From contig JAEOUA010000010.1 in NCBI GenBank assembly GCA_016839555.1, positions 352,001 through 416,000 of the forward strand: a stretch of 64,000 nt of DNA, in the 5' to 3' direction. Both the position numbers and the translations under genes were made by a program. This document shows positions 3,629 through 62,764 of the stretch, piece after piece. Numbering within the stretch: position 1 is the first letter of the stretch; the number at the start of each line of letters is the position of its first letter. The stretch is from Promethearchaeota archaeon. GTDB lineage: Archaea > Asgardarchaeota > Lokiarchaeia > Sigyniarchaeales > SOKP01. The notes under the pieces are model-generated. The model was not told where the DNA came from, did not search any database, and saw nothing but the letters and a program-made list of their open reading frames with translations.

Positions 3629-6178
3629 CTATTTCAATTTTTTGAAGCTCGTGGGCTGAAATTCTTTACCAACATTTTTTTTAAAAACTTCGCTGAACAT
3701 TTCTTTTCTATTTGAAGTTGCTATATCTGGTATGCGTTTTCTCTTTAAAGATTTTCTATATTTTCTTAATTTTCTAATGGCAGGGGGATATTTTAAATAT
3801 ACACGATATAAGATTACATATCCCGCGAGCCCAACCCCAGCAGCAACTCCAGCAACAATTGAAAAAATTAACCATCTTTGTGAAGCCTTGATTTCTTCTT
3901 GTATTCGTAAATAATTTGAATAAAACGATAAAAATAAGGGGAGATAATTAACACTCGGTGCAATTTCAAATTTGATATCAAATTGTTTATTTATATGATA
4001 ACTTGAATTACCATAAACCGTTATTGTAGTGTTTCCTGATGTCAAAGTACTTGTATCAACTATTAATAAGTATACCCCTGGTTCATCCATCGTTAAGTTT
4101 TTGGCAGAATAATTAGAATATACGAATGCATAATCAGTAGTTATAGGAGTATCATCCACCTTATCTTTAAATTCTATGTTTATAACAATGGTACCCGTAA
4201 CGTTTTCAAAATAATAAACTCCATCAACTTCAACATCATAATTTTGGGGTATAAAATCTGCATCATGTATAACTGTAAATTTTCTTGAAATAAGTCCAGT
4301 TTCATTCAATCCAAAGTTATTAAATGAATTATTCCAAGCTACAGCTACTTCATACTCCCCAAATTCATACTCAGGACCACTTGTTGGAATGGAAATAGGA
4401 TTAAAATAGACATTACCATCATTCTCCACATTCTTATATTGGGATTTCCAAGTTGTACCGTTCGGAAATCGAACCCATAGATATGCTTGGGTTTGATTCA
4501 AATAACTTTCCACTACTTCAGTTTTCGTGATTTTTGCGGTAATATTAAGAGTATCTCCGCTAAGAACTGTAGAGTTCTCAACCCAACCTCCAAAATAGTC
4601 ATTATAAAATTTCAGATCCTTATAGTAATTCGGTGATACCCCTTTAATTAGGAAAAATCCAGTACTTTCGCTATAAATTGTGCTTACAGGAATATCTAAT
4701 AATCCAGCTGTAGAATTATAACAGTCTCCTAAGATATTATTTATAGAATCTGTGGGGGTATATACTTCCGTTATATTCACATCCTCGGGAAATGAAATTG
4801 TTAAATTAGTTTCTTCGTAATCAGCAGGAAGCAATATATATGCATATGTGAGCCAATTTACTAATCCCCCATCCTCAACCTCAAAATTTGTCCCAGGATT
4901 AAATGTCTCTTTATTCCAAGTAGATTCAGGTTGATCTTTTCTCATAAAAAGATTGATATCAGTAGCAAACTCAATTTTATAAGAACTGTTATCAGTTACT
5001 CCAAAATGACTTGAAGTGAAGGAAGGAAAATTCCAAACATAAGAACTTGAAAACTCAACAAGAATTTTATCTCCACTCCATGTTCCGACATCACTTGAAT
5101 TCAATTCTTTATAGCCTTTCCCCCAATCTAAATCGACTATTTGTGAATTATTTAGCTTTAAATCTATTTGGGTTGGTTTAACTTCGGCTTTAGGTATTAA
5201 TTTAATATTATCTAAAAATAACTGTTGAAATTCTATATCCGAAAAACCGGAGGAATAGCTTGCAGATGCGGAATTATATTCTAAGGCAGCACTTATATCT
5301 ATTTGTGAACCGTTGAGTGGATCTGAGAAAATTGATGAAACATTTGTCCATAATCCCATTGGTATATTAAAAGTCTCCCATTCCGTTTCACCATATCCTT
5401 GAAGTGTGTAAATACCGATACTATAAATCTTTTGATTATTTAATGTAATTGTTAATTCCCAAGAATTGAAATTTGTAACATGATAAGGATTTACATCAAA
5501 TTGCAATTCACAATCTATTAATATTCCTCTTTCAATAATAATTGAAGTATTCCACATACATTTATCACCTTCATTATATCTATACCAATCGTGTGGTTCA
5601 TCATCAATAAATTGACCATCCATTCTTAATTCTATACAATCATGTCCAACTATATTATCCTCATAATTTCCTGACATATCATTATTATTACCAATATCTA
5701 TTTCGGAAAATGTCCAATTTTGATATTGATTTTCAATATATTCGCTATCATCTTCTCCAGGATTAGTTCCGTTATCAGCGCCATAATGAAATGAACCATT
5801 ATTCCAATTCTTTATATCATATAAATTATAAATATTTGATGCAAGTCTATAACCTTCCCAGCTATTTAAAGGCATTTCCAAAGTATCAGTTGTACCATTT
5901 GTAAAACTTAGATCAGAAAAGGATTCTGTAGCATTCGCATAATGCGTGATATTCCATGCAGCTCCAAACCCGCTATAACTGACACTGCCATCATCAAAAG
6001 TTAGACCCTGGGATTTCACATTATTTCCAATATTAAAAAGATTGTAATTATTATCATTATCATTAGAAAATAGGAATTCCTGCGAAGAAATACTTAGGAA
6101 TAGTGAACTCAATAAAAATGTTGTCGATAATGCGATGACAAATAAGATTCTCTTATTTTTTTTTCGTTTGATTTTCAT
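3629..6178 (-). CDS. large secreted, C-terminally membrane-anchored beta-rich surface glycoprotein with conserved basic cytoplasmic tail
   Basis: Start placed at ATG 6178 (GGTG 5 nt upstream) rather than TTG 6211. Basic then hydrophobic signal, N/D/S/T-rich ectodomain with many N-x-S/T sequons, C-terminal TM, then YPPAIRKLRKYRKSLK. Confidence 0.8.
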   Translation of the reverse strand: MKIKRKKNKRILFVIALSTTFLLSSLFLSISSQEFLFSNDNDNNYNLFNIGNNVKSQGLTFDDGSVSYSGFGAAWNITHYANATESFSDLSFTNGTTDTLEMPLNSWEGYRLASNIYNLYDIKNWNNGSFHYGADNGTNPGEDDSEYIENQYQNWTFSEIDIGNNNDMSGNYEDNIVGHDCIELRMDGQFIDDEPHDWYRYNEGDKCMWNTSIIIERGILIDCELQFDVNPYHVTNFNSWELTITLNNQKIYSIGIYTLQGYGETEWETFNIPMGLWTNVSSIFSDPLNGSQIDISAALEYNSASASYSSGFSDIEFQQLFLDNIKLIPKAEVKPTQIDLKLNNSQIVDLDWGKGYKELNSSDVGTWSGDKILVEFSSSYVWNFPSFTSSHFGVTDNSSYKIEFATDINLFMRKDQPESTWNKETFNPGTNFEVEDGGLVNWLTYAYILLPADYEETNLTISFPEDVNITEVYTPTDSINNILGDCYNSTAGLLDIPVSTIYSESTGFFLIKGVSPNYYKDLKFYNDYFGGWVENSTVLSGDTLNITAKITKTEVVESYLNQTQAYLWVRFPNGTTWKSQYKNVENDGNVYFNPISIPTSGPEYEFGEYEVAVAWNNSFNNFGLNETGLISRKFTVIHDADFIPQNYDVEVDGVYYFENVTGTIVINIEFKDKVDDTPITTDYAFVYSNYSAKNLTMDEPGVYLLIVDTSTLTSGNTTITVYGNSSYHINKQFDIKFEIAPSVNYLPLFLSFYSNYLRIQEEIKASQRWLIFSIVAGVAAGVGLAGYVILYRVYLKYPPAIRKLRKYRKSLKRKRIPDIATSNRKEMFSEVFKKNVGKEFQPTSFKKLK

Positions 6179-6458
6179 TTTAACACCGATATATTTATGT
6201 AAATATTTCAATTATAGAAATAATTTATTTGATTTTTTTAGATTTCATTTATAATTATAAGAAAATACCTTTTTTATTATAAATTTTTTCTACCTTAGGA
6301 TATAATTTAAGATTTCTAATTCAAATCTTTGGTTTGAGAACTAATTTTATGATTACAAGAGGTTGCTTTTGATTATTTTTTGCTTTATAACACAAGATAA
6401 ATAAAATAATTATAGAAAAAACTATTAAAATTTAATTTTAGTTAAAATTTTTTTATTT

Positions 6459-9400
6459 CTATATCTTTTCTCTAAATGCGTGTTCCCGACTAATTACTGA
6501 AATATCCCTTGGAATCTTTTCTTTTTTTAAACTTTTACGATATTTCCTCAGTTTTCTGATAGGTTCTGGAAATCTTAAGACTTTAAAATAGTAGATAAAG
6601 TATGATACAAAAGCTACGGCAATTGCGGCTAATCCAATAAAGGTTGCGAGGAATATGGGTGAAATAGTCGTTCTAGTCACAGGTATAATCGTGTAAAGAT
6701 TATAGCCGATTACTAAAGAAACATCATCAATGCTTATAGCTATCGTTTCATTTAATCCAAACTCATCCGCCAATACTACTTGAATAGTGAGATTGATATT
6801 TTCATTATAAGGTATTAAATCAGTGACATCGAACCCGCCAGATGATGCTCTTTGGAAATCGGTCGTAGCATCGTACAATTTAATTGTTTCTGTATTTTCT
6901 ATACCATTTATCAAAAATCGGAACTCCGAATTAGATGTTAAATTAAATGGAATCGTTTTGTTTGTCTTATAATCAAAATTTAATAATGCCTGCGTTATAT
7001 CAACTATTATCCCAGCACCGTAGTAAAGTTTTTTCCCTTTATATTCCCATGAAACTTTGGAAAATCGATTTATGACTCGTCTGTAAGTTATATTGAAATC
7101 ACAGGCTTTTATCAACACATTTACAAATTCATCAATATCTGTCGTAAAATTATCTTCACAATTGAATTCCATTCCTAAAATGAGTGTGAAATTCCTATAA
7201 TTACCTTCTAAGACTTGATTTATGTAAAAAATTAAGTCATACATATTTTTTGGGCTAAATATTGTATCATATAAAAAATCTGTGTGGTCATACCCTAATC
7301 CTTCATTTCGTCCCAATGATTTATTTAAATATGTGGCTACTGTAAAATTTAAAGTTTTATCAGCATTAGCAAGCATTACATAAAACTTAACGAAATCACC
7401 TTCAGTAATACTCCATCCATGTCCTTCATCATCTCCATATACATCTATCCCTCCATATCCACCAGTTACATCATCTCCCCATCCCTTTTCTTCTTTTACT
7501 GTGGCATTTACAGTTACTTCTAAAGTGGCAGAAGTAATATTAAAATCAGCCATATCTCGAGGCATTGTTATTAATTTTTCCCATTGTACGCTAACTCTCT
7601 GATCAGCATTATAAATGGAGCCACTATGTTCATCCCAAAGATGTGAGGCATAAAATCCTGATTCGTTTAAGCCAAACCCAAGAGTGGGATAAGCACTAAC
7701 TCTATAATTAGTTGAATTAAACCAGTAAGGAGAAGATATATTAGTTGGTGTGCCCGAATGCACTTGGAATGTTTCCTCTAAACCATTAATTATATAATTT
7801 GCCATTTCATTTTTAATGTTATAATCAATATCATAATCATCTGCATCAATAATAGGAAACCAATTATCTGCGGTTTCAAATCCAGAATTTTTTACCCATT
7901 CTTCTCGGAAAGCCCCTGCGACTAATTGAGTATCGCCTGATTGGCTTGAGACAATCTGATTTTGGGAAATAGTTAACTTGGGAATAGTTTCACTTGAAGC
8001 TGTAACTAATATTGGAGATAAAAGAAATCCAAACATAAAAAAGAACAACATAAAAACAACTATGAGAACTTTTTTATTATTATTTATGGACTTTCTTGAT
8101 TCTATTATTTTCTTTTTAGCTTTTTGGGCAAGATTTTTAATCGATTCACTTGTTGTTAATTTCTCTTCACCTTTCATCTTTGATAAGAAGGATTTTTCAC
8201 GGTTTTTTACTTCTATATTAGGGATTTTTGATTTTTTTAACGATTTTCGATATTTTTTTAATTTTCGAATAGGTTTTGGAAATCGGAGCACTCTACTGTA
8301 ATATATATAATAGCCTGATAATCCACCTATCACTGCCAATGCGAGAATAACCATTATAATTGGTAAAATAGATTCTTGCTCGCTAATCGTTGGATTAAAA
8401 TAAAGTAGACTATAGTTGATATTTAATTTCACATTATCAATTGAAATCATATAAATTTTATCCAAATCAAATTCATCAGCGATATAGACTTCAATCTTTA
8501 TTTTAAGTGGCTTATTTTTGGAAAGAGAGACAAATTCTGTTAAATCAAACCCATTTTCTTTTATGCTTTCTAGTGTTTGGTCTAACTCGCTTAATCTTAC
8601 TTTTTCCTTATAGAGTTTATCATTCAAATATACCCTGATTTCAGAATTCCTACTTATATTCCCAATTAAACTATCACTTATGTTGGCATCAAAGAATAAT
8701 TTCGCATCTAAAATGTTAAGGATACCGCCCTTCGAATCTATTTGGTTTCCTTGATATTCCCACGAAGCTGAAGAATATTTATTAATCACTTTTTCATAAG
8801 AAATTGAAAGACTAAGATTTTTAATCCATAAAGCATCCCAGTAATCTGCATCTGTAGGATATCCGTTATCTTCACACCACAAATAGATTCCTATTGTTAA
8901 TGAAAAATTATGATTATCCTTTTTTAATACTTCATCTAAATAAAATCGTAAAGTATCCTCATTTTGGGGTTCTATTTTAGTATCATTTAAATCCGTTATA
9001 GGGGGATCGACATCTCCATCTTTACCCAAATTTGTTGTTCGATAATATATTGTTTCAAATTCTCTACTTTTATCTAAATTTGAGATATATACAAAAAAGG
9101 CAGCATAATCTCCCAAAGCATAATATATATCATTACTTCCAACCTGTTTTGTATCTCCTGGGATATCAATTCCTCCATTATCTAGAGATTCCGCTTGAAC
9201 AGTTGCATTGATCCATGCTTCTAAGGAAGCATTAGTAATATTATAATCAGACATATCCTCCTGAATAGTGAAATTTTTCTGCCATTGAACTTTAATTGAC
9301 TGATTCACTTGATTATCCCAAGTATGATCTGCATACCAACCAAAAGAATTAGCATCAAAATTATCTGGGAGGGTCATGTTATCCTCATTTTTTATTCGAA

Positions 9401-9725
9401 TCCAACTCCCCGCATCTGGGGTTTCTATCCAAGTGTTATTTCCCTTATATCCCGTAATATTATAGTTAGCTGTCCCATTTTGAATATTAGTACTCAAATC
9501 ATTTTGATCTCCACTAATTAATGAATTCCACCCAGCAGAGTTCTCAAATTCAGAATTTTTTATCCATTGGTCTGATTGAGGTATAATAATCCAAGGACTA
9601 GTGGTATCTTGCCCTCTAACTTTGAATGAAGTCGAAAAAGCTACAATATCAAAAATGATAATAAAACCAACTAAAATTGAGATTAAAATTTTTTTATTTG
9701 GAAGTATAGTTTTATTTTCATTCAT
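6459..9725 (-). CDS. surface glycoprotein built of two tandem paralogous modules (signal/TM - ectodomain - TM - basic tail) x2
   Basis: Both halves contain W[IV]KNS.F, YA[DS]H.W, NATV, GGID, GD[YF]..F[FY]V, CEDN, NSE.R and ADEF.L, followed by a TM and FP.PIRKL.KYRKSLKK. Confidence 0.85.
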   Translation of the reverse strand: MNENKTILPNKKILISILVGFIIIFDIVAFSTSFKVRGQDTTSPWIIIPQSDQWIKNSEFENSAGWNSLISGDQNDLSTNIQNGTANYNITGYKGNNTWIETPDAGSWIRIKNEDNMTLPDNFDANSFGWYADHTWDNQVNQSIKVQWQKNFTIQEDMSDYNITNASLEAWINATVQAESLDNGGIDIPGDTKQVGSNDIYYALGDYAAFFVYISNLDKSREFETIYYRTTNLGKDGDVDPPITDLNDTKIEPQNEDTLRFYLDEVLKKDNHNFSLTIGIYLWCEDNGYPTDADYWDALWIKNLSLSISYEKVINKYSSASWEYQGNQIDSKGGILNILDAKLFFDANISDSLIGNISRNSEIRVYLNDKLYKEKVRLSELDQTLESIKENGFDLTEFVSLSKNKPLKIKIEVYIADEFDLDKIYMISIDNVKLNINYSLLYFNPTISEQESILPIIMVILALAVIGGLSGYYIYYSRVLRFPKPIRKLKKYRKSLKKSKIPNIEVKNREKSFLSKMKGEEKLTTSESIKNLAQKAKKKIIESRKSINNNKKVLIVVFMLFFFMFGFLLSPILVTASSETIPKLTISQNQIVSSQSGDTQLVAGAFREEWVKNSGFETADNWFPIIDADDYDIDYNIKNEMANYIINGLEETFQVHSGTPTNISSPYWFNSTNYRVSAYPTLGFGLNESGFYASHLWDEHSGSIYNADQRVSVQWEKLITMPRDMADFNITSATLEVTVNATVKEEKGWGDDVTGGYGGIDVYGDDEGHGWSITEGDFVKFYVMLANADKTLNFTVATYLNKSLGRNEGLGYDHTDFLYDTIFSPKNMYDLIFYINQVLEGNYRNFTLILGMEFNCEDNFTTDIDEFVNVLIKACDFNITYRRVINRFSKVSWEYKGKKLYYGAGIIVDITQALLNFDYKTNKTIPFNLTSNSEFRFLINGIENTETIKLYDATTDFQRASSGGFDVTDLIPYNENINLTIQVVLADEFGLNETIAISIDDVSLVIGYNLYTIIPVTRTTISPIFLATFIGLAAIAVAFVSYFIYYFKVLRFPEPIRKLRKYRKSLKKEKIPRDISVISREHAFREKI

Positions 9726-10054
9726 TAAAAATCTTTAAAATTGTTATTGATATAATTTAATTCCAGAAAGCAAAATGCTCTCTTTAATTTAAAAATATTG
9801 CAATTAAGATTAAGTAATATATTGTAATTTAAATATAAATTTATTTTGAAATAGAATCAAATAAGTAATTAAAAGCTTTTCAAAAATTATTTTATTAAAA
9901 ATTATTATACCTTAAAATTTTAAATTGAGTGTTTAATCGTTTTTTTGATTTTCACTGATTTAATGAATTTAATTTTGAACGTTTTAATCAAAAATAGAAT
10001 AATGATTAATATTCTCTTATTTCAGAAAAAATAATTAAGGAAAAAAAGAATTAT

Positions 10055-11686
10055 TTACATTATTTCTTTAAAGGCCTTCTCTCGACTTGAAATTTGAATG
10101 CTTCTCGGCATTTTTCCCCTTTTCAAACTTTTACGATATTTTCTTAGTTTTCTTATGGGCTTAGGATATCTAAAAATAGTATAATATAATACCAAATAAG
10201 TTCCTAATCCTCCTGCGATTGCGGCCGCTCCAATGAACAATGCAGCGTAAATCCATGGTTCAGTAGTTTCTTCAGAAATTCCTATATCTGGATACAATTG
10301 TATATAAGAGATCTGCAGATAGACGTTATCAAGAGAGATTGTAATATTTTCAGTTAAATCGAAGGTATTTGCCAGGTATAATTGAATTGAAAGGGTAATA
10401 TTTTGATCTTTGGGTATTATACTTGTTAAATCAAACCCAGCAGAAATAAACTCATCCGAATAGATATATTCACTTAATAATATTGGCTTACCATATTCAT
10501 TATTGTTGATAAACATTCGAAGCTCAGAATATTCTGAAGCGCTTGTCCAATTTCTATCCAATTTATAATCGAATCTAAGATCGGCTCCAGTAATAATGAC
10601 ATTCTCACCACTTATCATGCCTCCTTCTTGTCCCCAAGATATTGTTGTTTCTTTATCAATAATTTTTTCATAGGTAAATGTAAAATTAATACCGGTAAAA
10701 CATAATAAAGACCAGGTATCAGCATCTTGAGGGAAATTATCTTCACAATTAATATAAATACCTAATGAAAGTGTAAAGTTCTTATAATTCTGTTTTAATG
10801 CTGTATTTATATCAGATATTAACTGATCTTCTGATTTGGCTGTCATAATGCCATCAGTTATTTCATCTATTTCTGGATTATCTTGTCCAAGTTTTGATGT
10901 TTGATTGTATATTACTTCCTCAGAATTAAAATATTCCATATCTGATATTAAAACAAAAAATCGGACAAAATCTCCTGTTTGAGCTTCAAAATCTCCGGGA
11001 TCTATATTTTGATCACTTAAAACATCCACAGCACCATTATAAGAAGGAGGTTGACTTGAAGGAGTAGCTTGAACAGAAGCATTAAAACTTACTGTTAGAG
11101 CAGCAGATGTTATTTTATAATCAATCATATTTTGATCCAATGAAATTGTATAATTCCAATTTATAACAGCAATTTGATCTGCTGGTTGAGTATCACTCCA
11201 ATAATGAGAAGCCCATAATCCTCGAGAATCATTACCATAATTATCGGGATATATATCGGAAGCACTAACATTACTATTTGGGTCATAATAAGCCCATTTT
11301 GGTTCTGAATCAACTTGCCAACCTGTTTGATTTAAAGGATTCGTTAAATCCCATGATTTATTGAAGATATGCTGTTCGCCTATTACTCTTATATTTGCAT
11401 TTCCATCTTTAATAAAACCTACAACATCATCGAGTGGACTATCGGTCTCATTTGTTAAAAACCAGAATTGTTCCGTATCAAATTGAGAATTTCGAAGCCA
11501 TTGTTGGATAAATGGGATTTCCCCACTCGTCTTAAGATTATTATTACTAAGAAGTGTAGTATAGTTTTGGGTAATGAATATGTTATCATTATTATTCTCC
11601 GTATTTTGTTTTATTAAAATTGGTATCGTTAATGAAAGAATAAAGCAAATTGTAAGTATTAGTTTTAGCTTAGATTTTTTTTTCAT
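10055..11686 (-). CDS. single-module paralog of the 6459-9725 surface glycoprotein
   Basis: QWLRNSQF, WASHYW, NASV, GDFVRFFV, CEDN, SELR, TM, then YPKPIRKLRKYRKSLK. Confidence 0.85.
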   Translation of the reverse strand: MKKKSKLKLILTICFILSLTIPILIKQNTENNNDNIFITQNYTTLLSNNNLKTSGEIPFIQQWLRNSQFDTEQFWFLTNETDSPLDDVVGFIKDGNANIRVIGEQHIFNKSWDLTNPLNQTGWQVDSEPKWAYYDPNSNVSASDIYPDNYGNDSRGLWASHYWSDTQPADQIAVINWNYTISLDQNMIDYKITSAALTVSFNASVQATPSSQPPSYNGAVDVLSDQNIDPGDFEAQTGDFVRFFVLISDMEYFNSEEVIYNQTSKLGQDNPEIDEITDGIMTAKSEDQLISDINTALKQNYKNFTLSLGIYINCEDNFPQDADTWSLLCFTGINFTFTYEKIIDKETTISWGQEGGMISGENVIITGADLRFDYKLDRNWTSASEYSELRMFINNNEYGKPILLSEYIYSDEFISAGFDLTSIIPKDQNITLSIQLYLANTFDLTENITISLDNVYLQISYIQLYPDIGISEETTEPWIYAALFIGAAAIAGGLGTYLVLYYTIFRYPKPIRKLRKYRKSLKRGKMPRSIQISSREKAFKEIM

Positions 11687-11999: not shown

Positions 12000-13241
12000 A
12001 TGATTCAAGGAATATTATCGTTCTCTTTTAATTTAAACGAGAAACCATCTGGAGAGATTGATCCAGAATTTGATCCAATTCAATTACAATTTCGGGAAGA
12101 TTCTGAGTTTGGGGAGAGTAATTATCAGGATATGCTTATAAAAAACGACATTTTTGCTACCTATTATCAACAGATTACAGGATTATTTAGAAGAAAATAT
12201 GATTATTCCAATGTTTACTTTGGTACGCTTAAGGAAACTCCTTTTCAGATTATTTCGTACTTTAAGCAAGTTTCAGACGGCTCCCAATATCTTACTATCT
12301 CTATTTTTGATTTAGATGATGAGATCGAGCTATTTAGGGATATTATTACTGATATGACCGAACGGCTGGATGACCTTTTCGAAAAACTTTCTCTCGCAAG
12401 AGAAAAGAAACAATTAGAAAAATTAACGAATTTAAACATCCGTTTAAAAAACGAGCTAAAATTTGCGATATTTCAGGTTGATAGGTTATCGAATTTAGAC
12501 AATGTCCAAAAAGTCGCATTAATTTATAATAATAAATTGAGAATTGAAATTCTAGACCAGTTAAGAGAGTTTCCAATATCGAGAGAACACTTAAAGAGAA
12601 AACTACAAAATGTTAACCCCACATTTAATCTCGACATTTTATTAAGACCCCTTTCAGAATTAAATGTTATAAGAAGAGACTGGATAAAAGGTGAAAGAGA
12701 TGATGAAACAGGACAAATTAAAAACCGGGGGGAATATATATTTTTAATCAAGGATATTATGTTAGTGCGAACTCCTAGCCAAACCACCTTGGATAGTCTT
12801 CAAGAATCAAAACCGAATTTATACAATATTTATAAACAAAAGGTTGATGAATATTTTGCTCAATATGATCCATTTAAAGAACCCTTGGAAGATAAGCAGA
12901 AGGTTGCTTCCTTGATGTTAAATCCAGATATTTATGATTTCTTCTTACTCATGAGAAATCATTATTATCCAACCAAAAAGATTCCTAAAATCTTTTCAGA
13001 ATTCGCGGTGACTGAGGTTTTAATAAAAAATTTAACTGATTTAGGTATTTTAACACAAATCGAGGATGATGAGGGTGAAGAGTGGATTTTATTATTAACA
13101 GATGTTAAGCCAATCACAATCTTTCCTGAATATCTTCTTCCAAAAATTAGAGAAGCATACAAGTTTACCATTAATTATCAGGTGGCAAAGAAGGCTTACG
13201 ATCTCCTAGAAGTCACCTATCCAGAAAAGGTTGAGTTTTAA
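12000..13241 (+). CDS. putative longin/uDENN-like domain + tandem winged-helix protein
   Basis: The N-terminal ~160 aa follow a beta-beta-alpha-beta-beta-beta-alpha-alpha pattern (IQGILSFSF / PIQLQF / helix / VYFGTL / FQIISYF / YLTISIF / helices). Two wHTH-like segments follow (LRIEILDQLREFPISREHL...LRPLSELNVIRR; IYDFFLLMRNH...IKNLTDLGILTQI). Confidence 0.55.
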   Translation: MIQGILSFSFNLNEKPSGEIDPEFDPIQLQFREDSEFGESNYQDMLIKNDIFATYYQQITGLFRRKYDYSNVYFGTLKETPFQIISYFKQVSDGSQYLTISIFDLDDEIELFRDIITDMTERLDDLFEKLSLAREKKQLEKLTNLNIRLKNELKFAIFQVDRLSNLDNVQKVALIYNNKLRIEILDQLREFPISREHLKRKLQNVNPTFNLDILLRPLSELNVIRRDWIKGERDDETGQIKNRGEYIFLIKDIMLVRTPSQTTLDSLQESKPNLYNIYKQKVDEYFAQYDPFKEPLEDKQKVASLMLNPDIYDFFLLMRNHYYPTKKIPKIFSEFAVTEVLIKNLTDLGILTQIEDDEGEEWILLLTDVKPITIFPEYLLPKIREAYKFTINYQVAKKAYDLLEVTYPEKVEF

Positions 13242-13270
13242 TAATTTTAAGGAGGGGAATGAAAAGCTAA

Positions 13271-15250
13271 ATGGATTTATTTAATCAGAGAGAAAAAATT
13301 ACCATTCCCATTACATGTAAACTATGTTTGAAAGAAATAGAATTCGAAGTTTCAGCTGAAGAATATAACAAAACGGAGTCATTTCCGATAATCAAGGAAA
13401 GTATTCATGGAGATCCTAAACATAAACTCGTTGTCCATATAAACAAATATTTAGAAATAGAAGATTTTGCAATTGATAACCAATTAAAATTGGATTCTAA
13501 AGAAATCTCTCAAGATATAATAAATAGAGTTTTAGCTGATATTGGGCTTAATGATGAAGAAATCCATTTATATTATTTGACTGTTGGAAGAGATATTATT
13601 TCTTTAGGAGAAATAGCCCTTTTTTTAGATAAGTCAAAGGAAGAGAGTAAAAAAATTACAGATAAATTTATTGAAAAGGGATTATATAAAGAAATAATTA
13701 GTGAAACCCCTTATTATGCTCCATTACCTCCCTATGCTGCCCTTTTTGAGAAATTAAAAGATTTGCAAGGGAACATCTCAAAAGTAAAGGAAAATATAAT
13801 CTTAATTAAAAAATTCTCCTCGGAATTAACTAATACTTTACAAAAATTAGAAATTAGTCCCGAAGAAGGGGATCAAGTGGAGGACATCAGAGAGATAATA
13901 TTTAATATTAAAAATGAAGTACTGGAGAATATTAAAATTAAAGACCTTAGTCCTAAAGTTCAAATAAAAGAAATTCCCAAAGGAATTGGTAATTTGGATG
14001 ATTATACAAATAATATCATGAAATCTCAGATTACAGTTATTAAAGATCAATTTAAAGATATTAATTCAAAATCTATTCAGATTATAAAAGCTCAAATTGC
14101 TGATTTAAATGATAAAATAGATGAGATGCAAGCAATAATTTCGGATAATTTAAAAAAATTAAGATTAAGTGTGCTTGAACAAACAATATGTGGCTCAGTA
14201 GAGAAACTTCTATTGTCTACATTAAAAGAGATTCAAGGGGGGCTTGATGTACAATTAAGTGTTAATGAAATGGTTTTCAATGAAGAATTGAATAATTTTA
14301 TCGAAAAATTTAATCAAGAATTTATTGATAAATTTAAAACCACAATCGGAGAGACAATTGCTAAATTGGACAATATTGATTTGGATGTGAAATATAAAGA
14401 GGATGAAATCATACAAAATATAACCGCCCAATTTAATAAATCATTACAAACAGCTGAAGAGAAAATTACAAAAATTTGCTCCGGAAACGTTAAATCATTA
14501 GCAAGTATTAAAGGTCTACTTACTCAACGCGTTGAGAGCCAAATTGAAGGATCAATTGATGACATTTTAGATGAATTACAGCTTCAAGAGCAAATGACTA
14601 AATATTTTTGGGAACAAAGTAAGAAACGTGCTTCTCTTACAATGCGAAATGTCTGGTTTATTCATTCTATAGAAGCCGCGAAAGCTCATATAATTGAAGA
14701 AATCTCTAGAGCAAAATTACGGATTTTAATAGTTGCACCAAAAATAACCGATATAAGTTTAGATTCGATTAAATCGTGTCCTTCTCATGTAAATATTCGT
14801 ATAGCAGCTTATAGTGAACCAACCATACCAGAGCATAACAAAATTCTCAAAGAATTAATCAAGATGGGAAATGTAGATTATAGAAATCGGCAATTACAGA
14901 ATCTTTGGGGTATAAATCGAGATTATGAAGAAATCATTATTTGTGTACTTTCTAAAGAAAAGATAAAAGGAAAAGAATATATCGAAATTGCCGGGATTGG
15001 TTCTATTATTGAAGAACACATAAAATTATTGGTTCCGATTCTTGAGGATGCATGGGTTGGAGCAGAAAAACAAAAAATAGAACCAGGTGTCAAAGAAAAA
15101 ACCAGTATTGAGGATAAATCCTCTGATCTTTTTAAGCGTATTAAAGAGTTACGCAAAAAAGGGAGAAGCGCTTTAGATAAAGGTTTATTAAAAGATTCTC
15201 ATGGATTTTTTGAAGAAATTGCTTCAATAATAGATAATAATTTTCAATAG
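13271..15250 (+). CDS. TrmB-like regulator with N-terminal CxxC...H...H Zn domain and long coiled-coil insertion (paralog 1)
   Basis: CKLC...IHGDPKH; TrmB-type HTH GLNDEEIHLYYLT...EKGL...YAPLPP; ~290-aa heptad region; C-terminal ISRAKLRILIVAP, typical of the TrmB effector (PLD-like) domain. Confidence 0.7.
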   Translation: MDLFNQREKITIPITCKLCLKEIEFEVSAEEYNKTESFPIIKESIHGDPKHKLVVHINKYLEIEDFAIDNQLKLDSKEISQDIINRVLADIGLNDEEIHLYYLTVGRDIISLGEIALFLDKSKEESKKITDKFIEKGLYKEIISETPYYAPLPPYAALFEKLKDLQGNISKVKENIILIKKFSSELTNTLQKLEISPEEGDQVEDIREIIFNIKNEVLENIKIKDLSPKVQIKEIPKGIGNLDDYTNNIMKSQITVIKDQFKDINSKSIQIIKAQIADLNDKIDEMQAIISDNLKKLRLSVLEQTICGSVEKLLLSTLKEIQGGLDVQLSVNEMVFNEELNNFIEKFNQEFIDKFKTTIGETIAKLDNIDLDVKYKEDEIIQNITAQFNKSLQTAEEKITKICSGNVKSLASIKGLLTQRVESQIEGSIDDILDELQLQEQMTKYFWEQSKKRASLTMRNVWFIHSIEAAKAHIIEEISRAKLRILIVAPKITDISLDSIKSCPSHVNIRIAAYSEPTIPEHNKILKELIKMGNVDYRNRQLQNLWGINRDYEEIIICVLSKEKIKGKEYIEIAGIGSIIEEHIKLLVPILEDAWVGAEKQKIEPGVKEKTSIEDKSSDLFKRIKELRKKGRSALDKGLLKDSHGFFEEIASIIDNNFQ

Positions 15251-15341
15251 AAATATTAAGTAAAATTAAATAGAAATATAAATTAATTAGTGTAAATTTT
15301 TTTATATCTTAGTGAAATTAAATCAGTAGAGGGAAAAATAA

Positions 15342-17636
15342 ATGTATTTATTTAAAGGGGAAAAGAAAAAAATAATCCCTATAAAATGCAAACTTTGCCT
15401 TCAAGAAATTAAATTTGAAGTAACGGCAGAACAATACTCAAAAACAAGCATATTTCCTATAAAAATGGAAGATATACATGGAGATCCGCAGCATAAACTT
15501 ATTGTTTATATAAATAGAAATTTAGAAATAGATGATTTTAGAATTCAAAATCTCGAAGAGGAAGAAATAGTAGAAATTCCGCAAGAAATAACAAATAAAG
15601 TTTTACGCAATCTTGGTCTTACTAATGAAGAAATAGAGTTGTATTATTTGACATCAGGAAGAGACATTGTTTCTTTAGGAGAGATGGCTCTTTTAATAGG
15701 GAAATCAAAAGAACGGTGTAAGCAGATTGCAGAAAAATTTATCGAAAAAGGATTATATAAGGAAATAATTGGAGCTACTCCGCATTATACCCCATTACCT
15801 CCTTATGCGGCATTAATTGGCCAATTAAAGGAGTTTTATGGATTTATTTCAGACATTAAAGATAAGATGCCTATTATCGTTGATAAATCCTTTTCTGAAT
15901 TCGAAACAAGCGCAGAAGATAAAGCAAAGATTAAGGAAACTGAAGAAATAATCAAAGATATCAAAGAAAAAATGTTAAAACAGGTTGATATAAAAGAAGG
16001 AGCATTAAAACCACAGATAAAAAGATCAATTAAGGATATTGGAGATTTCAGTGGGATTACAGATACTGTGGTCCAATCACAAATAGAGCAAATTAAAAAG
16101 CAATTTGAAGATATTAATAAAAAAGCAATAAACATCATTCAAACGCAAGTATCTGGATTGCGGGACCAATTAAATAATATGAAATCCATTATTGGGGAGA
16201 ATTTGAAAAAATTACGATTAGGTGTTTTGCAGAATGCTATTGGAAATTCGATCGAAAAGGTAATAACTAACAGCATGAAAGAGATACAAGATGGACTCAA
16301 TGTACAATTAAGCGTGAATGAAATGGTGTTTACGGAAGAATTAAATGATATAATAGAAAATTTTGATAAAGAATTCGTCTCAAAAATAAAAGGTTCAATC
16401 GAAAATACCCTTAGCCAGTTAGAAGGAATGGATTTAGGAGTAGGACATGATCAAAAAGCGATTTTTGAAAATTTGGGAGATCAATTCAATCAAGCGTTAA
16501 AAGTTGCTGAACAAAAAATAAATGAGGTATATTCGGATATTTTTCAATCATTTGATAGTATTAAAGATTTATTTAGCAAACGAGTGGTAAGTAAAATTGA
16601 TGACACGCTCAGTGAAATCTTAGATCGCGTAAATTTGCAAGAAAAAGTCACTAAGAAATTTTGGGATCAGGCTAAGAAGAAATCAACTTTTACGATGCAC
16701 GATGTTTGGTTTATCCACTCTCCAGAAGCTGCCAGAGCTCATATTAATGAAGAAATATCTCGAGCAAAATTACGAATACTTATAGTAGCTCCTGAAATCA
16801 CTGATATTGATCTAGAGGCAATAAAATCATGTCCTTCTCATGTGAATATTCGTGTTGCAGCCTCAATAGATAAATCAAAACCACTCCATAAAGAGATAGC
16901 TCAAGAATTAGATAAAATTAATAATGCAGTTTGTAGAAACCGAAAATTGCAGAATCTTTGGGGAATAAATCGTGATTACGAAGAGGTAATATTGTGTGTT
17001 GTTTCTAAAAAAGAAATAAGCGGAAGGGAGCATACAGAAATAGCCGGGATTGGCTCAATTATAGAAGAGCATATTAAGATTTTCGTTCCTATTTTAGAAG
17101 AGGCTTGGATGGGTTCAGTAAAATCACAGACAAGCAAATTAGGGTTTTCTACTGAAATAGAACAAAGAAAAACCAAACCTATATCAATGCTTGAACCTGA
17201 AAGTATTGAAAAACAAAAGACAATGCCTAGTGTTAAAAAGTTAGAAACGTCTGATTTGGAAGTAAAGTTGAAAAAACCTATTGTAGAAGAGCAACCAGCA
17301 AAAGAGAGCATCATCTCGAAAACTGAACCAACACCAATTCAGCAACCAAGTGATGAAAAAAAAGAATCTATACCATTAGGAGAATTACCCATATTTGAGC
17401 AGTTACTCATAGGATTAGAAAATATTCAAAAGAATATATATGATATGAAAAGATCAGAAATCTCAGATGCATTGAATGATTTCTATAAAAAATATGTAAC
17501 ACATGTTGGACTGAATACAATGGCTAAGAACATTCATAAAAGAAGCATGGTTCTCGATTCAATGGATAAAGAATTAACTGAAAAAGAGAAAAAAGATCTA
17601 AGTGATCTAATAGAAAAGTGGAAAAATAGTTTTTAA
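15342..17636 (+). CDS. TrmB-like regulator with N-terminal Zn domain, coiled coil and extra C-terminal helical domain (paralog 2)
   Basis: Collinear with 13271-15250 (CKLC, IHGDPQH, GLTNEEIELYYLT, VQLSVNEMVF, ISRAKLRILIVAP, LQNLWGINRDYEE), plus a P/E/K-rich linker and terminal helical domain. Confidence 0.7.
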   Translation: MYLFKGEKKKIIPIKCKLCLQEIKFEVTAEQYSKTSIFPIKMEDIHGDPQHKLIVYINRNLEIDDFRIQNLEEEEIVEIPQEITNKVLRNLGLTNEEIELYYLTSGRDIVSLGEMALLIGKSKERCKQIAEKFIEKGLYKEIIGATPHYTPLPPYAALIGQLKEFYGFISDIKDKMPIIVDKSFSEFETSAEDKAKIKETEEIIKDIKEKMLKQVDIKEGALKPQIKRSIKDIGDFSGITDTVVQSQIEQIKKQFEDINKKAINIIQTQVSGLRDQLNNMKSIIGENLKKLRLGVLQNAIGNSIEKVITNSMKEIQDGLNVQLSVNEMVFTEELNDIIENFDKEFVSKIKGSIENTLSQLEGMDLGVGHDQKAIFENLGDQFNQALKVAEQKINEVYSDIFQSFDSIKDLFSKRVVSKIDDTLSEILDRVNLQEKVTKKFWDQAKKKSTFTMHDVWFIHSPEAARAHINEEISRAKLRILIVAPEITDIDLEAIKSCPSHVNIRVAASIDKSKPLHKEIAQELDKINNAVCRNRKLQNLWGINRDYEEVILCVVSKKEISGREHTEIAGIGSIIEEHIKIFVPILEEAWMGSVKSQTSKLGFSTEIEQRKTKPISMLEPESIEKQKTMPSVKKLETSDLEVKLKKPIVEEQPAKESIISKTEPTPIQQPSDEKKESIPLGELPIFEQLLIGLENIQKNIYDMKRSEISDALNDFYKKYVTHVGLNTMAKNIHKRSMVLDSMDKELTEKEKKDLSDLIEKWKNSF

Positions 17637-38022: not shown

Positions 38023-38577
38023 ATGGAAAATAATATGTCAGCAGAGGGACATTGGCTCCTAAAAATTGCGATTCTAGGAGATGATGCAGTTGGCAAAACG
38101 TCAATAGTTAGCCAATTCGTCGATAATACTTTTAGAGAGGATTATAAAGCAACAATCGGGACTAATATTTTGGATAAAGATTTAAAGTTCCCAGAATTAA
38201 ATGCAAGTGCTAAATTGGTGCTCTGGGATATTGCCGGGCAAACACAATACGAAAAGGTCCGGCCCGGATATTATGAAGGCTGTTCTGGAGCATTATTAGT
38301 GTATGACATCACTCGATCCACCTCTTTTGAAAATATCCCCACTAAATGGTTAATGGATTATAAGAATTTTGTAACTAAAGATCAAATCTATATCTTAATA
38401 GGAAATAAAAATGACTTAGACAATCAGAGGGAAGTAAATAAAGAAGATGGGGAAAAAATGGCAAAAGAGATAGAAGCAATCGAATTCTTAGAGACTAGTG
38501 CGAAATTTGGCGTGAATGTTGATAAAGCTTTTATAAAATTAGCTAAAGAGATTATTAAAGTAAAAATTTCAACCTAA
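38023..38577 (+). CDS. Rab-like small GTPase
   Basis: G1 GDDAVGKTS, G2 YKATIG, G3 WDIAGQ, YYEG, VYDIT, G4 NKND, G5 ETSAK. No C-terminal Cys. Confidence 0.95.
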   Translation: MENNMSAEGHWLLKIAILGDDAVGKTSIVSQFVDNTFREDYKATIGTNILDKDLKFPELNASAKLVLWDIAGQTQYEKVRPGYYEGCSGALLVYDITRSTSFENIPTKWLMDYKNFVTKDQIYILIGNKNDLDNQREVNKEDGEKMAKEIEAIEFLETSAKFGVNVDKAFIKLAKEIIKVKIST

Positions 38578-51743: not shown

Positions 51744-52514
51744 ATGAAAGCTCTCAAATTTAAGGTCCTTTTGTTGGGCGTTTCAATGGTCGGAAAGACC
51801 TCTTTAATGTATAGATTTTTAAATAATACTTTCAATGAGAACTATATTGCAACCCTTGGAGCGCAGTTTTTATCAAAAGAAATAATAATCTGTTCAGAAG
51901 AAGGTGAAGAAATTTGTATAAAATTAATTATTTGGGATATAATCGGACAATCAAATCCATATTTTGATGATTTAAGGACCACATTTTATAGAGGAGCAGA
52001 AGGAGCCTTTCTCATTTTTGATCTTACCAGGGAGGAAACCCTCGAAAAATTAAACTCATGGCATAAACAACTCAATTCTGTTTTAAATAAGAAGATACCC
52101 CTTATTTTGATTGGAAATAAACTAGATTTGATCGAGAATAAATTACCTTTCCCAATTCAAAAAAAAGCTGAAAATTTCGCCAATAACATAAAAAGCATGT
52201 ATATTAAAACATCTGCTAAAACTGGAAAAAATATAAATGATGCATTTTTGAAATTAGCATATATATTAGCCAGAAAAGCAGGATATGAGTTTGAAGATAA
52301 AAAAGTAATAAACCGAATTTCTGATAAGGAGAGTGAAAATGAATTATTTATTAAAAGCAGAGTGCAAGAGTATATTCAATCAAAAGGATATAGAGTTAGT
52401 GACTCATTGCTTAATGGTTTAGTTTTAAACAAACGAATCACAGAAATTCTCGACAAAGCTATAATAAGAGCAAAACATAATGGAAGAAAAACCGTAAAAT
52501 TAATAGATATATAG
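51744..52514 (+). CDS. Rab-like small GTPase fused to C-terminal histone-fold domain
   Basis: GVSMVGKT, YIATLG, WDIIGQ, FYRGA, NKLD, TSAK. The last 57 aa (52341-52511) read LFIKSRVQEYIQSKGYRVS...ILDKAIIRAKHNGRKTVKLIDI, with the histone A-x-H-x-G-RKTV-x3-D signature. Confidence 0.88.
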   Translation: MKALKFKVLLLGVSMVGKTSLMYRFLNNTFNENYIATLGAQFLSKEIIICSEEGEEICIKLIIWDIIGQSNPYFDDLRTTFYRGAEGAFLIFDLTREETLEKLNSWHKQLNSVLNKKIPLILIGNKLDLIENKLPFPIQKKAENFANNIKSMYIKTSAKTGKNINDAFLKLAYILARKAGYEFEDKKVINRISDKESENELFIKSRVQEYIQSKGYRVSDSLLNGLVLNKRITEILDKAIIRAKHNGRKTVKLIDI

Positions 52515-52568: not shown

Positions 52569-53759
52569 TTACTTAAATTTTATGAAAAAAAGATTGCCTA
52601 ATAGTTCAATAAGTTTTCCGGAGGGAATGTCGAGTAAAGTAATTTCTAAACGCCTCCCTCTTTTATCTTCACTGATTCTTACCGTTTTAGAAGCGATAAT
52701 TTTTAACTTATTTAATTGTCGTATATATTTGCGAAAACTCATTTTAACGTGAGGTGTAACATCATATGCTTCACATATAGCTTGATATTCCTTGTATGAA
52801 TCATCAACAATAGTATATGACTCATCAGTTATTTTTAATGACTGGCATATCCCATAAAGAGCCAATAATTCATGATCACTTAATTTATCTATAATGTCAT
52901 CCCGGAAAGTAGGATATACTTCGTTTGATGCTTCACGCACCATTTCGGCGGTAATATTATCAAAACTTTCTTTATCCGCATATAATCCACATTTTCTTAG
53001 AATTTCTATCCCGTGCCTCATGTTTCCATGTTCTACGACAATTTGGCTTATCATCTCCAAGATATTATCAGAAACCACTCCTTCTTTAAATGCGATATCG
53101 CTTCTATATTTAAGAATTTTCAGAGATTCTTCATAATTATATGGGGCTAACTTAATTTTTGAATTCAAGCGACTTAATATTCGTTCTGTTTCGATTCGAA
53201 TCCAATCTTTTGTCCTAGCAACAAGCAGGATTGATAATTTAGCATTTTGATGTCCAAAGGACTCTGAGATATCTAATAATGCCCAAACATCCTTTGGGTC
53301 GAGCAGATGGATCTCATCAATAATTAATAATATATATCCTTTTTCCCGAATTAGTTGGGAAAGAATTAATTTAATTGCTTCATCATCCGAATATCCGCGT
53401 CCAGAACCGTGGGTATATTTGGATAATAATTCCCTTAAAATCATACTTTTAGTGCGAAAATTAATGCAATTAAAGTATTCTATAAATAGATCAATACCCT
53501 CTTCTATAGCAATTTTTTTAAAATTTCTCCCAAAAAATCTGGCTGTCACTGTCTTTCCAACACCTCCTTTACCCGTAAGCAATGTGGTAATAGAAGGTTG
53601 TTGACTTTCATCTATGATTCTTCTAAAAGTATGAATTAATTCTCTAAGTTCATCATCACGGCAGTATAATTTATCTGGAACATAGCTTAAATCCAAAGAA
53701 CTTGCTTGGCGAAACACTGATTTTTTATTAAATTCTGCTCTAAATGCTTCTTCATCCAT
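52569..53759 (-). CDS. cdc6: Orc1/Cdc6 family replication initiator
   Basis: YVPDKLYCRDDE, Walker A GKGGVGKT, YFNC, Walker B IIDEIH, RILSRL, GNMRHGI, C-terminal wH domain with RGR. Confidence 0.93.
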   Translation of the reverse strand: MDEEAFRAEFNKKSVFRQASSLDLSYVPDKLYCRDDELRELIHTFRRIIDESQQPSITTLLTGKGGVGKTVTARFFGRNFKKIAIEEGIDLFIEYFNCINFRTKSMILRELLSKYTHGSGRGYSDDEAIKLILSQLIREKGYILLIIDEIHLLDPKDVWALLDISESFGHQNAKLSILLVARTKDWIRIETERILSRLNSKIKLAPYNYEESLKILKYRSDIAFKEGVVSDNILEMISQIVVEHGNMRHGIEILRKCGLYADKESFDNITAEMVREASNEVYPTFRDDIIDKLSDHELLALYGICQSLKITDESYTIVDDSYKEYQAICEAYDVTPHVKMSFRKYIRQLNKLKIIASKTVRISEDKRGRRLEITLLDIPSGKLIELLGNLFFIKFK

Positions 53760-54007: not shown

Positions 54008-54940
54008 CTAAAGATCTTCTAATTCTGAATTAGAAAGCGGATGCATTTTAGTATAACTCTGTTTAAGAGTAGTGATATCGTTTTTTGCATAGATTCTTGT
54101 CGTATTCGGACTTGAATGACCCAAAATATCTTGGAGTTCGCTAATATCCATTCCTGATCTCCTCAAATGAGTGGCACCTGTATGTCGAAATACATGAGGA
54201 GTGATTACCTTAGATTCTGCAAATCCACATTTCTCTTTAATGATTTGTATATCATTTTGAATAACTCGAGGACTTAATTGCTCATTTCGGGTATTTACCA
54301 ATAAATAGTCATCAGAATTATACTTAATTTTATTTTTTATATGTTCTTCAATTAAAGATAATGTTTTTTCATCAACAGGAACGATTCTTTCTTTATTTCC
54401 TTTGCCTCTTAAACGAATATACCCTTTCTCGAAATTAATATCTCTTATTCTAATATTACATAATTCACTGACTCTTGCCATTGTTGAGTAGAGCAATCTT
54501 ACCATTAGATAATATCTTTTGCTTTTTTTAGAATTAAAGGTAGTTCTCTCTTTTAAATTCATAAAAATTTTTTGTATATCTTTTAAATCCAAAAATTTCG
54601 GGAGACTTTCTTCTGCCCTGATTTTAGGGCTTCTAATTTTATTCATTGGGTTTTTAGAAAGAAATTCATTCAAAGTAAGAAACTTAAAATAAGATCTAAG
54701 ACATGCAATTTTTCGACTGATTGATTTTTTAGTATATCCTTTATCTTTTAATGCTTTTAAAAATAAGCGTATTTTTTGCCGCATTAATTTATGATCAATT
54801 TCGATGTCTCCAATAATTTTCATAAATTTTTCCAAATCGTATCTATAAGCTCTAATTGTTGACGGCTGGCAACCCTCCTCCACTTCCTTAGCAATTAAGA
54901 AGTCTTGAATAAAATCTGAAATTTTGTAATCATTTTCCAT
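54008..54940 (-). CDS. xerA: XerA/XerC-like tyrosine recombinase
   Basis: SAM-like N-domain (TIRAYRYDL), LPKFL, and an intact catalytic set: R (ARVSE), K (GKGNKER), HVFRH, LGH, Y (TTRIY). Confidence 0.88.
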   Translation of the reverse strand: MENDYKISDFIQDFLIAKEVEEGCQPSTIRAYRYDLEKFMKIIGDIEIDHKLMRQKIRLFLKALKDKGYTKKSISRKIACLRSYFKFLTLNEFLSKNPMNKIRSPKIRAEESLPKFLDLKDIQKIFMNLKERTTFNSKKSKRYYLMVRLLYSTMARVSELCNIRIRDINFEKGYIRLRGKGNKERIVPVDEKTLSLIEEHIKNKIKYNSDDYLLVNTRNEQLSPRVIQNDIQIIKEKCGFAESKVITPHVFRHTGATHLRRSGMDISELQDILGHSSPNTTRIYAKNDITTLKQSYTKMHPLSNSELEDL

Positions 54941-62224: not shown

Positions 62225-62764
62225 GTGAATAACTTGGAAAAGAGAAAATATTTTTTTAAGGTATTAGTAGCAGGACCACCAGGGGCAGGAAAAACATCTT
62301 TATTAAGGCGTTATATTAAGGGTAAATTTGACGAAAGTACACTCATGACTATTGGAGTGGATTTTTATTATAAAGTTTTAGAATTTAATGAAGATTTAAC
62401 TTGCTCTCTCCAACTCTGGGATTTTGGGGGACAAAAGCAGTTCGAAAAACTTCATGAGACCTATGTAAAGGGAGCTAGTGGCGCGCTTCTTTTGATCGAT
62501 TTAACTCGGATTCCAGATATGGATATAGTTATTAAATGGATGAATATTGTTCGATTAGAAAAAGAAAACCTTCCTGTAGTAATTCTTGGAAGTAAAGCCG
62601 ATCTAAAAGAGTTAATTATAGTGGACGAAGGTTTTATGAAAAAGATAATGGATATATTCAATATTAATCATTATCTTAAAACATCTGCAAAAACAGGCGT
62701 AAATGTTGATAAGGCATTTCGATTTATTGTGGAGGAAATACTAAAAAAGAAAAGGATTATCTGA
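62225..62764 (+). CDS. Rab-like small GTPase (variant G4)
   Basis: GPPGAGKTS, TIGVDF, WDFGGQ, YVKGA, SKAD, TSAKTG; basic C-terminus KKKRII. Confidence 0.93.
   Translation: MNNLEKRKYFFKVLVAGPPGAGKTSLLRRYIKGKFDESTLMTIGVDFYYKVLEFNEDLTCSLQLWDFGGQKQFEKLHETYVKGASGALLLIDLTRIPDMDIVIKWMNIVRLEKENLPVVILGSKADLKELIIVDEGFMKKIMDIFNINHYLKTSAKTGVNVDKAFRFIVEEILKKKRII

Follow-up and report, generated by a model that had tools for sequence, protein, structure and literature searches.

A conserved cytoplasmic tail of Asgard archaeal surface proteins as a predicted docking motif for a longin-domain protein

Results

Four tail modules lie beside a divergently encoded longin protein

The window analysed, a 64,000-nucleotide stretch of a Lokiarchaeia genome (contig JAEOUA010000010.1), contains three adjacent genes (A, B and C; Table 1) that together carry four modules in which a hydrophobic transmembrane (TM) helix is directly followed by a common tail motif, all at the places given in the original prediction. 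Protein A, with 26 N-glycosylation sequons in all, is a member of a '1250-aa' family and lacks approximately 390 residues found in its close orthologues. Protein B runs from a signal/TM segment through ectodomain, TM and tail to a second TM, ectodomain, TM and tail; this tandem fusion is real, as a contig from a second sample spans the junction without differences, and the same layout occurs in two further genomes (G007 and G019). A fifth, divergent tail copy is found in a 1551-aa protein on another contig (C12). Scans of the locus for promoters, terminators and repeats returned nothing beyond chance or coding repeats.

On the opposite strand lie F1, built of a longin, two winged helices and a C-terminal helical docking region, and two copies of a second family, F2. 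The first F2 copy combines a CxxC..H..H N-terminus, a TrmB-type wHTH, a long amphipathic helical region and a C-terminal domain judged by eye to be TrmB-like. None of the proteins A, B, C, F1 and F2 matched a Pfam or NCBIfam family above cut-off.

Table 1 Features of the tail locus (positions within the window).
Feature	Position	Strand	Description
Gene A	3629-6211	-	860 aa; signal peptide, ~750-aa ectodomain, TM, tail (single-pass surface protein)
Tail of A	3692-3802	-	aa 804-840
R816 of A tail	3764-3766	-	predicted salt-bridge partner of F1 E404
Gene B	6459-9725	-	1088 aa; two C-type modules fused in tandem
C-terminal tail, B module 2	6474-6584	-	4 aa from motif to protein end
Internal tail, B module 1	8184-8294	-	in a cytoplasmic loop, not at the C-terminus
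Gene C	10055-11686	-	543 aa; beta-sandwich ectodomain between a signal peptide and the TM, then a minimal tail
Tail of C	10070-10180	-	protein ends 4 aa past the motif; defines the minimal unit
F1	12000-13241	+	413 aa, putative adaptor, divergently encoded from gene C
F1 longin	12000-12494	+	aa 1-165
Main predicted tail-docking surface of F1	13107-13220	+	aa 370-407
F1 E404	13209-13211	+	in the predicted docking surface
F2 copy 1	13271-15250	+	659 aa
F2 copy 2	15342-17636	+	764 aa; 52% identity to copy 1 (same family)

Across the phylum-wide set, tail-bearing ectodomains belong to several families. That of C adopts a galactose-binding/CBM-like jelly-roll fold, apparently as two nested domains, with closest matches to 4d0q (Z 12.3), CBM4-2 (11.9) and the MAM domain of RPTP-mu (11.0); the fold is thus common to CBM4/CBM70/MAM-type beta-sandwiches, at a sequence identity of only 8-23%, and close models in the ESM Atlas come only from unnamed archaeal clusters, mostly Promethearchaeota. 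The ectodomain of A had been described as lacking the motifs of the others and does form a separate family, whose profile matches the outer domain of C only weakly (hhalign E 0.004, probability 9%).

The tail core is conserved beyond its ectodomains

What had been described as a strongly conserved tail of about 40 residues proved to be a conserved core of approximately 17-20 residues, a Pro-kinked amphipathic helix, followed by a looser second helix rather than by further invariant positions. Among the four tails, 12 of 15 consecutive core positions are invariant, and an HMM built from them retrieved these four alone at E<1e-18 from the 9094 ORFs of the genome, indicating that the motif is not due to chance. 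As had also been proposed, the tail is better conserved than the ectodomains: the 25-codon cores are 56-80% identical, compared to 35-36% for whole C/B modules.

Recent duplication or gene conversion would offer a simple reason for this similarity, and tails are indeed closer within genomes (0.76) than between them (0.65), and the tail of A is more similar to the tails encoded beside it (0.71-0.88) than to those of A-family members at other loci (0.47-0.65). Synonymous sites between the copies are, however, saturated (pS 0.59-0.85), and identical codons are at background (49 observed, 48.3 expected), which speaks against recent events, while an older homogenisation would leave the persistence of the tail unexplained. 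Near-identity of tails is limited to their own subtype and genus, and the motif, far from being confined to this locus, is distributed phylum-wide. The probability of this explanation is in our judgement negligible, and the sequences show the tail to be conserved under purifying selection.

Tail and F1 form a linked cassette in many Asgard archaea

The tail was detected in 155 of 251 genomes of the phylum (537 protein clusters) and F1 in 165 of the 251, largely in the same families. Neither was detected in families f17, f19, f20 and f25, or in 25 of the 26 f8 genomes searched; the sole f8 match, on a 2.5-kb contig (G229), falls within the subtype III genes of Lokiarchaeia (100/95 support) and is a probable bin contamination. 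An F1 gene lies within 12 kb of 113 of 150 tail hits, directly downstream on the same strand in 63, whereas 53 of 126 F1 genes have no tail gene in the flank examined, which often covered only 1.5 kb. The intergenic gap is 0-4 nt in subtypes II and III, the pair has been duplicated as a unit in one genome (G014), and linkage is kept in MK-D1 (DSAG12_03149 with F1 DSAG12_03152), in Odinarchaeum (OdinLCB4_001185 with OdinLCB4_001190) and in other distant families. TM-less tail copies, encoded as peptides, also adjoin F1 paralogues. Gene linkage, a common family distribution and subtype pairing of tail and F1 are thereby shown by comparative genomics.

A single C-terminal module common to unrelated ectodomains is also what the PGF-CTERM, Loki-CTERM and archaeosortase systems of archaeal surface proteins present, and the tail might accordingly be a processing or export signal (sortase- or rhomboid-like), with F1 as a biogenesis chaperone instead of a lasting adaptor; the tight gene coupling in subtypes II and III would fit co-translational assembly. 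Those signals, however, carry their signature before the TM and end in a short basic cluster, whereas here the motif follows the TM and also occurs internally in B, and the cytoplasmic part is structured and has 40 to more than 100 residues (median of approximately 100 from TM start to C-terminus). The gene linked to the tail encodes a soluble longin protein and not a protease, and family clustering revealed no recurring sortase-like protease gene in the cassettes read. No CTERM family was among the matches listed for 41 TM-plus-tail segments and full proteins searched against NCBIfam 20.0, which presumably includes the Loki-CTERM model, and no NCBIfam or Pfam family covers the tail, in keeping with its original description as new. 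We regard a processing signal as highly improbable.

The longin of F1 resembles those of eukaryotic GTPase platforms

The longin of F1 (AF2 pLDDT 87) is closest in fold to those of FLCN/FNIP-Lst4, C9orf72/SMCR8 and NPRL2/NPRL3, with VIA Z-scores of 12.6 to FLCN, 12.2 to Lst4, 12.1 to the C9orf72-SMCR8 entry and 11.3 to GATOR1 (8fw5_B), at an rmsd of approximately 3 A over 131-152 residues. The F1 profile found no match among PDB sequences. Two winged-helix-like units are present in the model, and end-to-end Foldseek comparison of GATOR1 chains with F1 reached E values of only ~0.08-0.13. Tail-F1 gene fusions were found neither at the loci read nor among the 150 best representatives; the longer forms of F1 have charged helical extensions instead.

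NPRL2-like longins have been reported in Asgard archaea (10.1101/2020.10.19.343400), and an arginine finger together with a GP motif has been put forward as the criterion for longin GAP subunits (PMC12290439). Across 126 F1 sequences, no Arg is conserved at >=70% in residues 1-165, and G18 is invariant while the following Pro is not conserved, so that compared to the GAPs NPRL2, FLCN and SMCR8 no conserved arginine finger is seen and the GP motif is reduced to its Gly. A role of the F1 longin as a catalytic GAP is therefore unlikely on these alignments.

The second winged helix of F1 matches ArsR repressors (Z 7.2-7.3), in subtypes I and II F1 is followed by F2, and 7 of 15 F2 members match a TrmB wHTH (best E 1.5e-9). 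Taken with the position of residues 252-259, which are part of the predicted tail interface described below and adjoin the first wing, this could mean that F1 is a transcription regulator which the tails keep at the membrane and which is freed upon ectodomain engagement or cleavage, acting with F2 by an anti-sigma or Mlc/PtsG logic. A longin followed by tandem winged helices in one chain is, however, the layout of NPRL2 and NPRL3, which are non-DNA-binding scaffolds. The conserved winged-helix residues of F1 are mostly of hydrophobic or structural character rather than those expected of a basic recognition surface, and subtype III, the commonest, lacks F2. A membrane-held regulator is, in our view, unlikely.

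The tail is predicted to dock on the F1 C-terminal domain

A common intracellular partner had originally been proposed for the tail, possibly among the proteins encoded at 12000-17636, and F1 emerged as the candidate. In one complex prediction using self-built alignments, tail and F1 scored 0.74, compared to 0.00 for the best control; the mark applied is reached by 58 of 80 solved pairs and by 2 of 110 mismatched pairs. Runs agreed in at least 97% of contacts, with a partner pLDDT of at least 74. Contacts were predicted at F1 residues 189 and 252-407, with none confident in the longin, and predicted-interface residues are more conserved than the remainder of F1 (0.56 vs 0.42, p 0.008). The slowest-evolving part of F1, residues 366-413, shows a dN of 0.009 vs ~0.04 elsewhere in two close orthologues, and of 0.065 vs 0.09-0.10 in a third.

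Covariation points to the same interface. The top MI-APC pair of 14,616, F1 404 with tail position 19 (E404-R816; z 7.7), is also a predicted contact. An acidic F1 404 is paired with a basic tail residue in 32 of 35 cases and a basic one in 0 of 31 (14 acidic, 17 neutral); like charges occur in none of 73 pairs. The charges are reversed in relatives, with sister paralogues in one genome (G009) swapping jointly (E/R vs R/D), and these reversed variants were absent from the alignments used for the complex prediction. Counted by independent changes, the swap comprises only 4 contrasts (3-4 concordant, 0 discordant; sign test p 0.125-0.25). The remaining high-ranking MI pairs lie off the interface and reflect subtype signal. 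Mirror-tree correlation was rejected as evidence for the interface, since tail distances correlate better with the longin (0.58) than with the interface (0.36), a signal of shared history only.

The original prediction had also named an anionic membrane surface as a possible binder. A basic, amphipathic segment right after the TM (median hydrophobic moment 0.6, median charge +4) could well serve as a lipid-binding or stop-transfer element, its linkage to F1 being operon history, but the net charge of the tail helix spans -2 to +8, position 19 follows the charge of F1 404, TM-less copies sit beside F1, and the predicted complex passes against controls. These observations disfavour the membrane as binder and leave a lipid-binding tail with very little probability, whereas linkage, predicted complex and covariation together support the proposed protein partner.

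Discussion

The reading we favour, and consider probable as a whole, is that the tail is a protein-docking motif for F1, whose free longin would lead to a GTPase platform or sorting. Of its parts, binding of the tail to F1 is very likely, the complex and its interface being predicted, while for a GTPase-platform or sorting output of F1 the chances are roughly even. Past the TM, a Tyr/Phe/Ile-Pro kink would begin the amphipathic helix, a loop would then lead into a second short helix, and the tail would dock on the C-terminal domain of F1. The free longin may then pair with another longin or roadblock protein or with a small GTPase, and this pairing might control placement, turnover or signalling of surface proteins, as in eukaryotic longin platforms. 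In several lineages F1 has a small-GTPase gene as its neighbour; none lies next to the present locus, where the nearest is at 38023.

The logic is like that of integrin beta tail-talin, cadherin tail-catenin and cargo motif-AP pairs, in which a variable ectodomain, a single TM and a short conserved tail meet one cytosolic adaptor. Homology to these pairs was not detected in the tail, the ectodomain or the docking domain, and the ectodomain of C is a CBM/MAM-like jelly roll with no integrin- or cadherin-type Pfam match. AP sigma and mu subunits also carry longins (Z 8-9 to F1), and dileucine motifs bind the longin of AP sigma; here, in contrast, the tail is predicted on the winged-helix-associated C-terminal domain, and no adaptin-like gene was noted in the cassettes read. 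We know of no report of NPRL2-, FLCN- or C9orf72-type longin proteins binding a membrane-protein tail through a C-terminal domain, as is predicted for F1, and our literature search, thin in subscription papers, found no description of the tail/F1 cassette.

More tentatively, and with less than even confidence, the cassette may represent an ancient dedicated Asgard receptor-adaptor system, in which shuffled lectin-like proteins share one tail and a longin/winged-helix adaptor engages small GTPases, one subtype standing beside an actin-family protein. Among the loci read, only MK-D1 has such an actin-family gene, next to a single F1 subtype; a cytoskeletal link is unsupported at the present locus, which has no actin or ESCRT gene. 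In the Heimdallarchaeaceae genomes searched, the cassette turned up only once, in what is probably a contaminating bin sequence, and this weakens any claim that it is directly ancestral to eukaryotic adaptors.

Asgard longins are abundant and mostly without assigned partners. Cultured Asgard archaea are described as having complex surface proteins and no ordered S-layer (PMC9834061), and as crawling with balanced adhesion (PMC13716822); the accessible portions of both papers leave the molecules linking surface to cytoplasm unnamed. If correct, the tail-F1 cassette would be an undescribed receptor-adaptor link in many Asgard archaea. On the more tentative reading above, it would also be a prokaryotic working analogue of cargo and adhesion adaptors, and might underlie the regulated adhesion by which Asgard cells crawl and touch one another. 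Both members of the pair are assigned to genes in MK-D1, which is in culture, and the cassette comes with a predicted interface and a natural charge swap.

Surface proteins sharing a cytoplasmic tail

The source genome (3.74 Mb, GC about 30%; the window lies on its contig C10) encodes proteins that match Promethearchaeota/Lokiarchaeota entries. Four modules of a transmembrane (TM) helix followed by a basic tail, originally noted in three adjacent genes, were confirmed in A, B and C. B consists of two C-type modules fused head to tail, with 35–36% identity to C; its fusion junction is present as identical sequence, without differences, on a contig from a second sample, and the tandem layout also occurs in other genera. 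Because C and the second module of B stop four residues past the motif, the minimal unit is about 37 aa. Modelled with AF2 (pLDDT 82), C comprises a beta-sandwich ectodomain, the TM helix and two short tail helices at lower confidence; the closest folds to this ectodomain are CBM70, CBM4 and MAM jelly rolls (Z 11–12), and judging by fold it may bind glycans. A lacks about 390 aa, approximately residues 731–1140 of its 1251-aa orthologues (loci L081 and L084), through an internal deletion in the stalk.

Features of the tail–F1 system and other genes (locations without a prefix are in the window)
Feature	Location	Strand	Description
A	3629-6211	-	860 aa, TM + tail
B	6459-9725	-	1088 aa, two TM + tail modules
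C	10055-11686	-	543 aa, TM + tail
F1	12000-13241	+	413 aa, putative adaptor
F2 tandem, 13271-17636	13271-15250; 15342-17636	+	TrmB wHTH, apolipoprotein-like helices
F2 relative	C10:294631-296478		third relative
Rab-like genes	38023-38577; 51744-52514; 62225-62764		
Cdc6-like ORF	52569-53759		
Tyrosine-recombinase-like ORF	54008-54940		
Subtype III pair	source genome C12:221859-227636		1551-aa surface protein, divergent tail, 372-aa F1 paralogue
Surface protein	source genome C1:500129-502474		781 aa
Distant F1 paralogues	source genome C6:240175-241281; C5:537819-539141		
Tail-only proteins	L070:5129-5329 (G021); L045:11964-12374 (G045)		no TM or ectodomain
Two-TM tail protein	L076:5915-6319		no ectodomain
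F1 variants	L061:3423-5501; L062; L063; L065:2017-3648		C-terminal extensions
Actin-linked row	L060:2534-9729		MK-D1, DSAG12_02897 region

The similarity of the four tails does not stem from recent duplication: among the tail cores (25 codons each) pS was 0.59–0.85, and shared residues had 49 identical codons against 48.3 expected from codon usage. The tails were also more conserved than the ectodomains, with dN against orthologues of 0.09–0.20 versus 0.16–0.34, noisy figures from 39 codons only.

The motif extends well beyond this locus, its profile matching 40 of 41 close relatives, 155 of 251 genomes across the phylum and 537 clusters at 50% identity; the reading frames that carry it reach about 4400 aa. 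No match for the tail proteins was found among Pfam or NCBIfam families, in line with the claim that the tail is not a characterised anchoring family. Among 90 long-ectodomain representatives, 60 were C-type, 14 A-type and 16 neither. The ectodomain of A had been described as unlike the others; it does belong to a separate, old family reaching MK-D1 and Odinarchaeum, linked to the outer domain of C by no more than a weak profile match. Family-wide, only a proline and a helix pattern (hydrophobic at 15, 18, 21/22 and 25, basic at 16) are retained, and tail net charge ranges from -2 to +8.

Two small tail-only proteins lie beside or near F1 paralogues and are possibly soluble decoys or regulators. 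Another protein pairs two TMs with the tail, and the 781-aa surface protein carries a different cytoplasmic domain of about 230 aa after its TM.

Linkage of the tail to F1

Among the F1s listed, F1 lies within 12 kb of at least 113 of 150 tail matches and directly downstream in at least 63; matches without a neighbouring F1 are mostly on contigs having no F1 among those listed. The pairs form three subtypes: I (YPKPVRK tails, F1 of 417 aa, often divergent genes), which includes the window locus, II (YPPLVRK, 375 aa) and III (IPKFVKK, about 372 aa). The fifth tail of the source genome, on C12, is followed three bases downstream by its own F1. Three genes upstream, this pair is preceded by an Arf-like P-loop gene with the motif GLDNAGKTS, as likewise in L034 and L035.

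F1 and the tail occur largely in the same families, with P. syntrophicum, Odinarchaeum, Freyarchaeum and Harpocratesius among the named carriers; in Freyarchaeum and family f10, tail genes are frequently separate from F1 genes. In the 251-genome search, neither was found in families f17, f19 (including Borrarchaeum), f20 and f25, or in 25 of 26 genomes of f8 (including Heimdallarchaeum aukensis). The single f8 match (L056, G229 contig C317) nests inside Lokiarchaeia subtype III and is probably bin contamination.

The confident F1 model (pLDDT 87) contains a longin domain, two winged helices and C-terminal helices; the longin is nearest to FLCN/Lst4/C9orf72/NPRL2 (Z 11–12.6), and no conserved Arg finger was found in F1. 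Two distant paralogues in the source genome differ from tail-linked F1s in carrying a GP dipeptide behind their first strand, and neither has a tail gene in its vicinity; variants at four loci carry charged helical C-terminal extensions of 170–330 aa.

The module works like a receptor–adaptor pair and, in the tests made, is not a member of the CTERM, integrin/cadherin, AP or GAP-longin families. It is real, widespread and apparently unpublished: neither the tail nor the tail–F1 pair turned up in the literature searches. NPRL2-like longins in Asgard are already known in general (10.1101/2020.10.19.343400).

A predicted tail–F1 interface

The predicted complex of F1 with the A tail scored 0.74, against 0.00 for the best control; of 80 solved pairs 58 attained the mark for this score, as did 2 of the 110 mismatched ones, counts that are approximate here because our own alignments were supplied. 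We know of no similar solved complex. Runs agreed in at least 97% of contacts (partner pLDDT at least 74), with the first tail helix docking on F1 380–407 and the second near 252–259 and 372–378; no longin residue is among the named contacts.

The predicted interface is more conserved than the remainder of F1, a comparison confounded by buried residues, and the C-terminal 48 aa are the slowest-evolving part. Among 14,616 column pairs from 73 neighbouring gene pairs, the top inter-protein covariation joined F1 404 to tail position 19 (R816 of A), also a contact in the predicted complex. The tail residue is basic in 32 of 35 pairs with an acidic F1 404 and in 0 of 31 with a basic one, and charge-swap variants were absent from the alignments supplied to the predictor. 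The swap recurs on the F1 tree, including between sister paralogues within one genome; its four independent contrasts (3–4 concordant, 0 discordant) are too few for significance. Interface conservation, the slow C-terminus and covariation all agree with the predicted complex.

The original prediction invoked either a common intracellular partner, sought among the neighbouring proteins (12000–17636), or an anionic membrane surface. Linkage, predicted complex and covariation point to F1 as the probable partner, and the occurrence of tail peptides without a TM next to F1 paralogues speaks for binding to a protein rather than to lipid. Binding of the tail to F1 is well supported as a prediction.

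Possible outputs of tail binding

In several lineages F1 has genes for Ras/Rab-like or Arf-like GTPases as neighbours, and in one MK-D1 subtype a gene of the actin family, which fits a longin platform; no GTPase or actin-family gene adjoins F1 at the window locus. There, F1 is followed by the two F2 proteins, TrmB-like with long amphipathic helical regions, which leave room for another, less likely reading, with F1 as a regulator held at the membrane. As an output of tail binding, we infer that F1 may serve as a longin platform.

The MK-D1 row consists of a tail protein, F1, a 287-aa protein with no Pfam match and the actin-family gene (PF00022, E 2e-27). L081 and L083 have the F2 duplication of the window too.

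Other genes in the window

Three Rab-like small GTPase genes were recognised by motif. The Cdc6-like ORF lies beside the tyrosine-recombinase-like ORF, both assigned by eye.
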